Under the pieces are notes generated by a model. The model was not told where the DNA came from. It did not search any database and saw only the letters and a program-made list of their open reading frames with translations. DNA of 64,000 nucleotides from Escherichia phage ECO103 4-12-1. Below, in pieces: positions 34,902 to 36,250 of the stretch (the first letter of the stretch is position 1; each line of letters begins with the position of its first letter). Where the stretch lies: the sequence record OR844650; one strand, 5' to 3'. The position numbers and the translations under genes are program-made.

Positions 34902-35282
34902 TCATTTAGTAAAACACGAATTATTACTGATAAGTTCATCAAGTACGTTTTGTACTTCGATAGAATTAATATCAACTTTGTAATAATTATAGTTTTTAAC
35001 TCTAAAATGTTCTTTTGATATATCAACTTTAAATTCAATAATATCAAGATTACCAATAAAATCAGACTTATCAGTTCTTAAATCCAAAATACCTAATTCC
35101 GGTTTTTGTGGTTTACATAAAATCAAACCAAATTTATTTTCTTCAAATGCCTGATTAAACATATCATAATAATCACTAATAACAAATCTAATATTATCAG
35201 TGCTTAACTTTCCTGATTTTCCTTTTTTATAAACAGAAACAATGTTTAGTTCAAAGGTTTTACCAAAGCGTGTGATTTTCAT
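34902..35282 (-). CDS. hypothetical protein
   Basis: track ORF. Confidence 0.45.
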   Translation of the reverse strand: MKITRFGKTFELNIVSVYKKGKSGKLSTDNIRFVISDYYDMFNQAFEENKFGLILCKPQKPELGILDLRTDKSDFIGNLDIIEFKVDISKEHFRVKNYNYYKVDINSIEVQNVLDELISNNSCFTK

Positions 35283-36250
35283 TTTGGGCTATAACCACTT
35301 TTAATTTTGGAAATTACTTTCTTCTCGAAGAACTTACGTGCTTCTTCAATAGTTTCGAATTCTTCACCATCAGTAGTACTGGTTTTACCAATAGCACCGT
35401 ACTCAATAATTACTTCACACACTGGAGCATTCAATTCAATATTATAGAATTTGTTTGAAGAACCGTGAACATATTCCAAATGAACATTATCAGGAATGTT
35501 CTGTACATAATCATAGTTCTTGAAGATAATATCAATCATATTTTCTTCGCCGCGATCAGGAAATAGTTCAGTATTATTCAGTACTAAACGCTGTGCAGCA
35601 CGGAACATATCAAAATATTGTTCGCCTTTTTTCAGTTCTTTTGTATCAGAACAGAAATGACCATAGTATTCTACATAATCATTCCAAGGATAAATTCCTT
35701 CATCAGCAGTTTCAGACACGTAAGTTTCATCTTGTGGAACTTTAAAACCACGAGTTTTTGGATGAGAAATTAAGCACAGTGAAATATTATGACCGATATC
35801 TGAATCATCAGTAATACTACCACCAACCATATGAACAACATTTTTAATACTTTCAAAATCTACATCTTCAATTTCATGATACATTAAATGTTCTTCAATA
35901 TTACTTACTAGTAATGAATTACCATTTCCGGCATCGAATTCAAAAATGAAAAGTTCTACACAATCTTCTTCTTTCATTTCAATAGTATCACTGAGTTTAA
36001 TATACTCATTTTTTAATTGTTCAATATTTTCATGAGAACCAAAACTATAACGTGAACTGATATAACTACTACCGTCCAACCATCCCATATCCCAAGGTTC
36101 TTCTGACATGTATTCTGAGCTATAGAAATCAGTCAAATCATCTCTCTGAGTACAAACCGTAAGAGAACGAACATTACTAAGACCTTGAACTTCAAGATTC
36201 AGTACTGTAGTATTGCCAATTTTTTGTTCAGAAATAATTTTAGTTTTCAT
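35279..36250 (-). CDS. protein with C-terminal WGR-like domain
   Basis: C-terminus KFYNIEL..VIIEYGAIGK..EEFETIEEARKFFEKKVISKIKSGY fits the WGR pattern (W-G-R replaced by Y-G-A). Confidence 0.45.
   Translation of the reverse strand: MKTKIISEQKIGNTTVLNLEVQGLSNVRSLTVCTQRDDLTDFYSSEYMSEEPWDMGWLDGSSYISSRYSFGSHENIEQLKNEYIKLSDTIEMKEEDCVELFIFEFDAGNGNSLLVSNIEEHLMYHEIEDVDFESIKNVVHMVGGSITDDSDIGHNISLCLISHPKTRGFKVPQDETYVSETADEGIYPWNDYVEYYGHFCSDTKELKKGEQYFDMFRAAQRLVLNNTELFPDRGEENMIDIIFKNYDYVQNIPDNVHLEYVHGSSNKFYNIELNAPVCEVIIEYGAIGKTSTTDGEEFETIEEARKFFEKKVISKIKSGYSPK

Follow-up and report, generated by a model that had tools for sequence, protein, structure and literature searches.

The window analysed here is a stretch of 64,000 nucleotides from Escherichia phage ECO103 4-12-1 (sequence record OR844650), and its minus strand carries a gene for a 323-residue protein that ends in a WGR domain. 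Tentatively, and with somewhat less than even confidence, we read this protein as a non-virion regulator or occluder that binds nucleic acid, whose WGR domain would dock on the backbone and whose acidic N-terminal module would supply the output. The domain call itself is not new: several GenBank records give the gene the product name "WGR domain-containing protein", and Iyer et al. (2021) cited the ortholog in phage Ecwhy_1, QAY00573.1, among jumbo-phage transcription factors with WGR as the DNA-binding domain. What is added here is that the N-terminal part, an orphan whose fold is predicted with confidence, occurs in no more than a few dozen sequences, and that, judging from sequence comparison, the WGR domain is probably "break-blind" and unlinked to the nicotinamide adenine dinucleotide (NAD+)/ADP-ribose genes of the phage.

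In the model that we prefer, the WGR domain would bind the sugar-phosphate backbone of nucleic acid, by analogy, through a putative surface made up of the essentially invariant K267, Y269, Y284 (an aromatic position), K311 and K315, which fall at DNA-contact positions of PARP2. It would probably not read a 5'-phosphorylated break in the PARP manner. The acidic N-terminal module, which in the structural model appears to be packed rigidly against the WGR domain, would supply an output that is most likely steric, protein-binding or ligand-sensing, so that factors of the host or the phage would be blocked or recruited where the nucleic acid is bound. This would make the protein a small regulator or occluder of the one-component kind and not an ADP-ribose-signalling enzyme. 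Because in the E. coli phages the gene appears to have its own sigma-70-like promoter, it is probably expressed early, by host RNA polymerase. We infer both the step from WGR fold to nucleic-acid binding and the step from orphan module to output. The model fits the class of transcription factors that Iyer et al. (2021) proposed.

The WGR domain and its PARP2 counterpart

The gene is a complete ATG-to-stop open reading frame (ORF) of 323 codons that matches positions 35279-36250 of the minus strand exactly, and it contains the peptide strings cited in the first-pass annotation of this DNA. Pfam WGR (PF05406) matched residues 256-322 with an E value of 1.1e-10 and a score of 41.9 bits (gathering score 22), over positions 3-74 of the 79 in the profile, and each of the 27 close homologs and three distant ones matched the family too. 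An AlphaFold2 model of the full-length protein, built with the 27 homologs, had a predicted local distance difference test score (pLDDT) of 90 and a predicted template modelling score (pTM) of 0.89, the latter of which suggests a fixed arrangement of the two modules. In its C-terminal part an antiparallel beta sheet leads into a C-terminal helix, and this part can be superposed on solved WGR domains. This domain is the most conserved part of the protein.

Because pairwise BLASTP of the protein against the WGR domain of PARP2 gave no alignment, a profile alignment was required. Comparison of the family's C-terminal profile with the human PARP2 WGR domain (a sequence identical to PDB 6f5b_A) gave an hhalign probability of 88.6% and paired Y284-G285-A286 with W151-G152-R153 of PARP2. 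All 27 homologs keep the glycine; the first motif position holds Y in 26 of them and W in one, and the third holds A in 11 and G in 16 without a single R or K, so that the eponymous Trp-Gly-Arg is absent. The closest solved WGR domain, 2ra8, is also off-motif and reads Y-G-K, so W-G-R is not strictly needed for membership.

Searches of the full protein against other collections returned no match in PHROGs, a sole NCBIfam match to a Leptospira family over the WGR region and far under the cutoff, and in PADLOC only non-significant matches to ThsB and WGR_XIII (the latter with E 0.022, over profile positions 7-77 of 973). The MolR-type architecture carries an additional DUF4132 domain (Pfam). In a Pfam scan of all 323 residues WGR was the sole family, and no MolR-type extra domain was found. 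Three claims of the first-pass annotation, a C-terminal WGR domain, Y-G-A in place of W-G-R and an N-terminal part lacking any recognisable motif, were thus borne out, respectively, by the Pfam profile and fold comparison, by the PARP2 alignment and by profile searches in which the first ~255 residues matched nothing.

The DNA contacts of the PARP2 WGR domain were described by Obaji et al. (2018): K130, Y201 and K183 surround the 5'-phosphate, K179 and Y132 contact the backbone, W151 stacks on the 5' ribose, R153 lies with N127 at the 3' side, and Q159 is also a contact. The mutants R153A, N127A, Y201F, K183A and W151A lose the stable complex, and single mutation of R153, N127 or Y201 abolishes stable binding or activation by 5'-phosphorylated breaks. 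Four of these nine positions are conserved in the phage family and one is conservatively replaced. The counterparts of K130, Y132 and K183 are K267, Y269 and K315, each identical in 27/27 homologs, and that of K179 is K311 (K in 26/27). W151 corresponds to Y284, a position that is aromatic throughout. R153 falls on A286, where no homolog has a basic residue; N127 falls on S264, a position with eight different residues among the 27 homologs; and Q159 falls on T292, which is T, S or N. For Y201 there is no phage counterpart, because the homologs stop 3-10 residues past the Y320 position and the strand that would bear it is absent. From this alignment we infer that the backbone-binding surface is probably retained and that the elements for PARP-type specificity for 5'-phosphorylated breaks are probably gone.

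The backbone-docking model has in its favour that the identity of the WGR domain stands by profile and by fold, that the equivalents of K130, Y132, K179 and K183 are kept in 26-27 of the 27 homologs with an aromatic residue at the W151 position, and that WGR serves other bacterial proteins as a modular nucleic-acid-binding appendage (in ATP-dependent DNA ligases, type XIII retron accessory proteins and bacterial PARPs).

Several observations weigh against it. The motif arginine, the N127 equivalent and the Y201 strand are missing from every one of the 27 homologs. The WGR core is near neutral, with a net charge of -2 to +4 across the family (PARP2, +4; 2ra8, +3), and the whole protein is strongly acidic (net -31, isoelectric point (pI) 4.5), which is unusual for a DNA binder. 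The promoter is a consensus match only and is absent from the relatives in which the gene is internal to an operon. A conserved operator was not found: GGAAC-N4-GTTCC, the one perfect palindrome close to the promoter, has a single exact copy, at 36310-36323 in the 5' leader of the WGR gene, and with at most one mismatch it occurs at five sites (36310-36323, 18511, 33177, 53688 and 60405) against 0.67 expected, a number reached in 0/100 shuffles. We rejected it as an operator since a 4-nt deletion disrupts it in phage Sharanji, where the protein is 100% identical. Finally, a literature search found no experiment on the protein and no report of nucleic-acid binding for close relatives.

The N-terminal module and the extent of the family

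The N-terminal 252 residues had no relative outside the family in sequence or fold searches, and no enzyme family was matched. Modelled alone, this module gave a pLDDT of 88 and a pTM of 0.89. It is predicted to consist of a three-strand beta meander (residues 2-34), a ferredoxin-like beta-alpha-beta-beta-alpha-beta unit (66-144) and six helices (152-250), and its predicted core resembles the ACT, RAM and PII-type ferredoxin folds. The module is acidic (net -28, pI 4.4), and it is so in every homolog (net -24 to -35, pI 4.05-4.46). Per residue, the acidity of the protein ranks 11th among the 103 ORFs of the window, which is noticeable but not extreme, and on this ground we rejected the idea that it is a DNA mimic.

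Across the widest alignment G60, G71, N117, G144, D148, D149 and P164 are invariant, and these residues concentrate in loops that follow beta strands (S-N at 116-117 and G-G-x3-D-D at 143-149). Such a pattern could be the mark of a pocket or an active site. D106 is nearly invariant in the close family and is not kept in the distant clade. One possibility, which we regard as rather unlikely, is that the module is a new fold with a function of its own, either a small-molecule sensor or a metal-dependent enzyme (N117, G144, D148-D149), coupled to a break-blind WGR anchor. If so, jumbo phages would have an undescribed one-component regulator or anti-defence effector, and the natural WGR-only truncations described below could be constitutive or dominant-negative forms of it.

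A quite unlikely variant is that the protein is specifically a WGR-targeted enzyme, in which a new catalytic fold with a putative metal-dependent site at N117, G144 and D148-D149 would be delivered by the WGR domain to a nucleic-acid substrate. The placement of invariant residues in the post-strand loops (116-117, 143-149) and the purifying selection on the module are consistent with this idea, and so are the WGR-catalytic fusions known in PARPs and DNA ligases and a genomic neighbourhood in which genes of nucleic-acid repair and metabolism abound (DNA ligase, RNA ligase, a CCA-adding enzyme and cREC_REC). However, the module matches no enzyme family by sequence or by fold, D106 is lost from the distant clade, and two relatives have cleanly deleted the module while keeping the WGR domain.

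Selection was estimated against the Ecwhy_1 ortholog, which is 97.8% identical to the protein. The ratio of nonsynonymous to synonymous substitution rates (dN/dS) was 0.107 for the entire gene and, from 22 substitutions, 0.138 for the N-terminal module and 0.046 for the WGR domain, which indicates purifying selection on each of the two modules.

Searching 5.8 billion clustered proteins yielded 27 full-length homologs of 314-331 residues (38-100% identity), all of which end in a WGR domain, and the N-terminal module was found there in about 35 protein clusters, only as WGR fusions. An exhaustive hidden Markov model (HMM) search of 1.84 billion cluster representatives with the N-terminal module alone gave 8 matches. 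Seven of these are proteins of 314-354 residues with a Pfam WGR domain, four close and three distant (with the WGR C-terminal); the eighth, P0031 (3455 residues, E value 4e-6), matches profile positions 179-214 five times over and seems to be an artefact of repeats. Widening the profile brought in two further proteins of the same architecture. The module is thus very rare and is fused to WGR in every family member examined. We found no paralog of either module in the window or in 11 related loci.

The distant clade (P0030, P0032) lies among ORFans, adjoining an adenylosuccinate-synthetase-like gene, and shares no neighbour with the window. Its members at L008 8001-9029 and L009 7001-8029, on AT-rich ORFan contigs, encode 342 residues with 21-26% identity, and three unannotated genes of 361-409 residues precede the gene.

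When the WGR segment was used as the query, mini-proteins of 74-97 residues were recovered that are 62-74% identical to the phage WGR domain. Locus L014 has an intact 79-residue WGR-only gene exactly where L003 has the full-length gene; the N-terminal module was lost in a clean deletion of 709 nt, and translation begins at an internal Met. Locus L015 has an intact 74-residue gene that reads MK/FPD..., as if residues 3-251 had been excised in frame. Two independent intact derivatives of this kind indicate that the WGR domain probably has a function of its own and is autonomous, and that the N-terminal module is probably an add-on. This autonomy, the purifying selection on both modules and the pTM of 0.89 are further points in favour of the regulator or occluder model. 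Near the WGR-only gene or directly after it, L014 (9323-10564) and L015 (2358-3605) also encode a tyrosyl-tRNA-synthetase-like protein, which is absent from the window at that position.

The replaceable cassette, its candidate promoter and the neighbourhood

The source phage is an Asteriusvirus jumbo coliphage, one of the PBECO4/121Q-type giant E. coli phages, and the 4 kb around the gene are 99% identical to those of Asteriusvirus BF17, UB, G17, Sharanji, slurp01 and PBECO4. The protein is 100% identical in phages slurp01, UB, G17, SP27, Sharanji and ELP-22. Thirty-four phage records match the surrounding 4 kb and only 15 E. coli phage records carry the WGR gene, which is present in 16 phage records in all. 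In CRJP21, 222 bp stand in place of 34841-36454, with only a 180-nt ORF annotated there. Mass spectrometry of phAPEC6 detected 62 virion proteins; the ortholog gp336c is not one of them, and the PhoH-like gp341c, encoded nearby, is. The gene is an accessory gene of PBECO4/121Q-type jumbo phages, most likely with a non-virion product, and the absence of gp336c from the virion proteome, together with the candidate promoter directly upstream of the gene, also counts in support of the regulator or occluder model. The genome papers on Sharanji, fEgEco12 and phAPEC6 leave the gene unmentioned, and the sole literature match for "Asteriusvirus" with "WGR" was the string "wGRR", which we rejected as false.

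The upstream end of the cassette is a remnant that starts at 36454, right at the boundary of the CRJP21 indel. By tblastn it is 82.8% identical (E 2e-32) to residues 234-297 of the upstream protein of L004, and its final 20 residues are identical to the end of the upstream protein of L015; its frame differs from that of the 216-residue ORF that lies upstream in the window. The presence of a remnant of an upstream-gene homolog suggests that recombination brought the cassette in from a related phage whose WGR gene follows a full-length upstream gene. The 105-nt ORF annotated at the remnant in Sharanji and G17 is probably part of it.

The candidate promoter matches the consensus at 11/12 positions, the best match in 34400-38600, and lies inside the remnant ~90 nt upstream of the start codon. 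Its sequence is conserved in Ecwhy_1 and Sharanji, and the same positions are coding sequence in the metagenomic relative L004, so the promoter may derive from the gene remnant.

Coordinates of the WGR gene, its modules, the cassette and neighbouring genes in the window
Feature	Position	Strand	Basis
WGR-domain protein coding sequence, complete, 323 residues	35279..36250, stop codon included	-	ORF list
N-terminal orphan module, residues 1-252	35495..36250	-	
WGR domain, residues 256-322, Y284-G285-A286 replacing W-G-R	35285..35485	-	Pfam PF05406
126-residue ORFan gene	34902..35282	-	start overlaps WGR stop (ATGA)
Variable cassette (remnant, promoter, WGR gene, 126-residue gene)	34841..36454	.	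blastn, window vs L002
Decayed 3'-end remnant of upstream-gene homolog, in-frame stop	36263..36454	-	tblastn
Candidate sigma-70-like promoter TTGACA-17 nt-GATAAT, extended -10 TG	36341..36369	-	consensus match
PIN-PhoH fusion	38516-39955	-	ORF; PIN/PhoH domains and product names in orthologs
cREC_REC (cyclic-phosphate processing receiver)	40318-40635	-	Pfam
Nudt16-like Nudix	40648-41196	-	Pfam
Sir2	41196-41951	-	Pfam
Macro	about 3762-4238		annotation of relatives

We considered whether the 126-residue ORFan gene is a partner of the WGR gene and rejected this, as the two distributions are independent. It occurs in 10 E. coli Asteriusvirus records only; tblastn (E <= 1e-3) found no match to it in the WGR-carrying SP27, EC.P1, Ecwhy_1, fEgEco12, UE-S1, TH47 and Hallingskeid; and WPEC5 carries it without WGR. 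Its product had no significant Pfam match. On the cassette's opposite side, the 216-residue gene (36468-37118, minus strand) is a shortened form of a 284-297-residue protein in L003, L004 and L015, of which only residues 1-131 and a diverged C-terminal motif align; it has no Pfam match. Terminator-like hairpins lie at 37467-37484 and 38134-38155, one of them bidirectional and GC-rich at the 3' end of a 185-residue gene and the other in the spacer upstream, and the two may mark the ends of transcription units that lie between PhoH and the WGR cassette.

The distribution of the cassette bears on another explanation, to which we give a minor but real chance: that the protein is an anti-defence or host-takeover binder, in which WGR, alone or with the acidic module as a DNA-like decoy, would protect the phage by sequestering an immune component of the host or an immune nucleic acid, such as retron multicopy single-stranded DNA (msDNA) or a sensor of DNA ends or nicks. 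The cassette is replaceable, and of phages that are otherwise 99% identical only about half have it; the gene has a candidate sigma-70-like promoter of its own, as is typical of early genes, and the N-terminal module is acidic in all homologs. WGR also occurs in host immune systems (the type XIII retron accessory protein, to which the PADLOC match is weak), and WGR-only mini-proteins persist in relatives, as would be predicted for a simple binder. Against this, the acidity is only 11th of 103 ORFs per residue, and the PADLOC matches are not significant.

In the first-pass annotation, genes for Sir2, Nudix and macro proteins in a phage with a WGR protein were taken as a hint of DNA-break or ADP-ribose sensing. 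Their presence in the same phage was confirmed by Pfam (Sir2, Nudix) and by the annotation of relatives (macro). Sir2 and Nudix lie 4.4-5.7 kb from the WGR gene on the same strand and macro ~31 kb away, with NrdD/G, DNA ligase, RNA ligase and a CCA-adding enzyme farther off. Metagenomic relatives and Erwinia phage Hallingskeid also have the order Sir2-Nudix-cREC-PhoH...WGR...NrdD; since these phages are collinear over the entire region, such synteny is no specific evidence. Homologs of Sir2 and macro occur across the RaK2/121Q-like clade (macro in 71 records), and Sir2 or macro is present without WGR in 121Q, CRJP21, E9.1, JP4, SHEFM2K, RaK2, K64-1 and GAP32. Sir2, Nudix and macro are core genes of the whole clade and WGR is found in 16 records only, so the phyletic patterns argue against a functional unit.

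We judge it very unlikely that the protein senses DNA breaks or ADP-ribose in a PARP-like way, acting with the phage Sir2, macro and Nudix proteins. WGR is indeed the break-sensing domain of PARP1-3, and the proximity of Sir2 and Nudix, the macro gene elsewhere in the window and the recurring gene order fit such a role. But the protein has no ADP-ribosyltransferase (ART) or PARP_reg domain, it lacks equivalents of R153, N127 and Y201, many clade members keep Sir2, Nudix and macro without WGR, the distant clade has no neighbour in common with the window, and gene order that is conserved region-wide says little about function. Of the first-pass annotation, the domain call and the genomic context stood; its functional inference was not supported, and some of the evidence speaks against it. 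The probability left over by the readings weighed here goes to the absence of any function or to an alternative that we did not consider.

Two further observations concern these neighbours. Genes for Sir2, Nudix, cREC_REC and a 100-residue ORFan form an overlapping run at 40019-41951 on the minus strand that is conserved in L004 and L014; taken with the genes for RNA ligase, the CCA-adding enzyme and DNA ligase, the run suggests a module that serves RNA repair or is linked to NAD. The PIN-PhoH ortholog phAPEC6 gp341c was found in the virion at 30.9% coverage by mass spectrometry, and virion-packaged PIN-PhoH may be injected along with the DNA.

Comparison with known WGR systems

In the DNA-dependent PARPs (human PARP1, PARP2 and PARP3) the WGR domain precedes the catalytic domain. 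In contrast, the phage WGR domain stands at the extreme C-terminus: profile and fold searches found no ADP-ribosyltransferase catalytic domain in the protein, no PARP_reg helical regulatory domain follows the WGR, and the PARP-1 chain 4dqy_C aligns over 67 residues only, which are the WGR domain. The phage domain further differs from that of PARPs in having Y for W and A or G for R, in the unconserved N127 position, in the missing Y201 strand and in a core that is near neutral and not basic. Li et al. (2024; PMC11662467) reported a "DNA damage sensor PARP1" in many NAD-jumbo phages. Automated "PARP1" calls in jumbo phages could stem from WGR-only proteins, and such calls may need checking. Because its WGR domain lacks the PARP break-reading residues and its distribution is unlinked to Sir2, Nudix and macro, the protein described here should not be listed among phage proteins as a "PARP-like DNA damage sensor".

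Among other WGR proteins, the uncharacterised Bacteroides fragilis Q64V53 (2ra8) has its WGR domain at the N-terminus, fused to an unrelated 290-residue domain, and allows no functional transfer. The family itself was placed in the MolR-like WGR class by virtue of its WGR domain (Iyer et al., 2021), but the phage protein has no other MolR-type domain and no conserved operator was found for it. With the WGR-HEAT/ARM protein of type XIII retrons it has in common a WGR-like module in a setting of phage-host conflict. The retron protein, however, combines an N-terminal WGR with HEAT/ARM repeats and is encoded next to a retron reverse transcriptase, and the phage protein matches it weakly, with E 0.022 and over the WGR only; no ARM repeats were found in the phage protein, and no reverse transcriptase or ARM protein nearby.

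The stand-alone WGR mini-proteins of related jumbo phages (74-97 residues) have 62-74% identity to the phage domain and the same motif, (Y/F)-G-(A/G)-(I/V)-G-K, and one of them, P0034, occupies the same syntenic position as the full-length gene. They differ in lacking the N-terminal module, and P0034 and P0036 derive from full-length genes by deletion. With the WGR-only genes and the cassette-less phages as natural controls, an E. coli phage offers a cheap test of what a bacterial-type WGR domain does.

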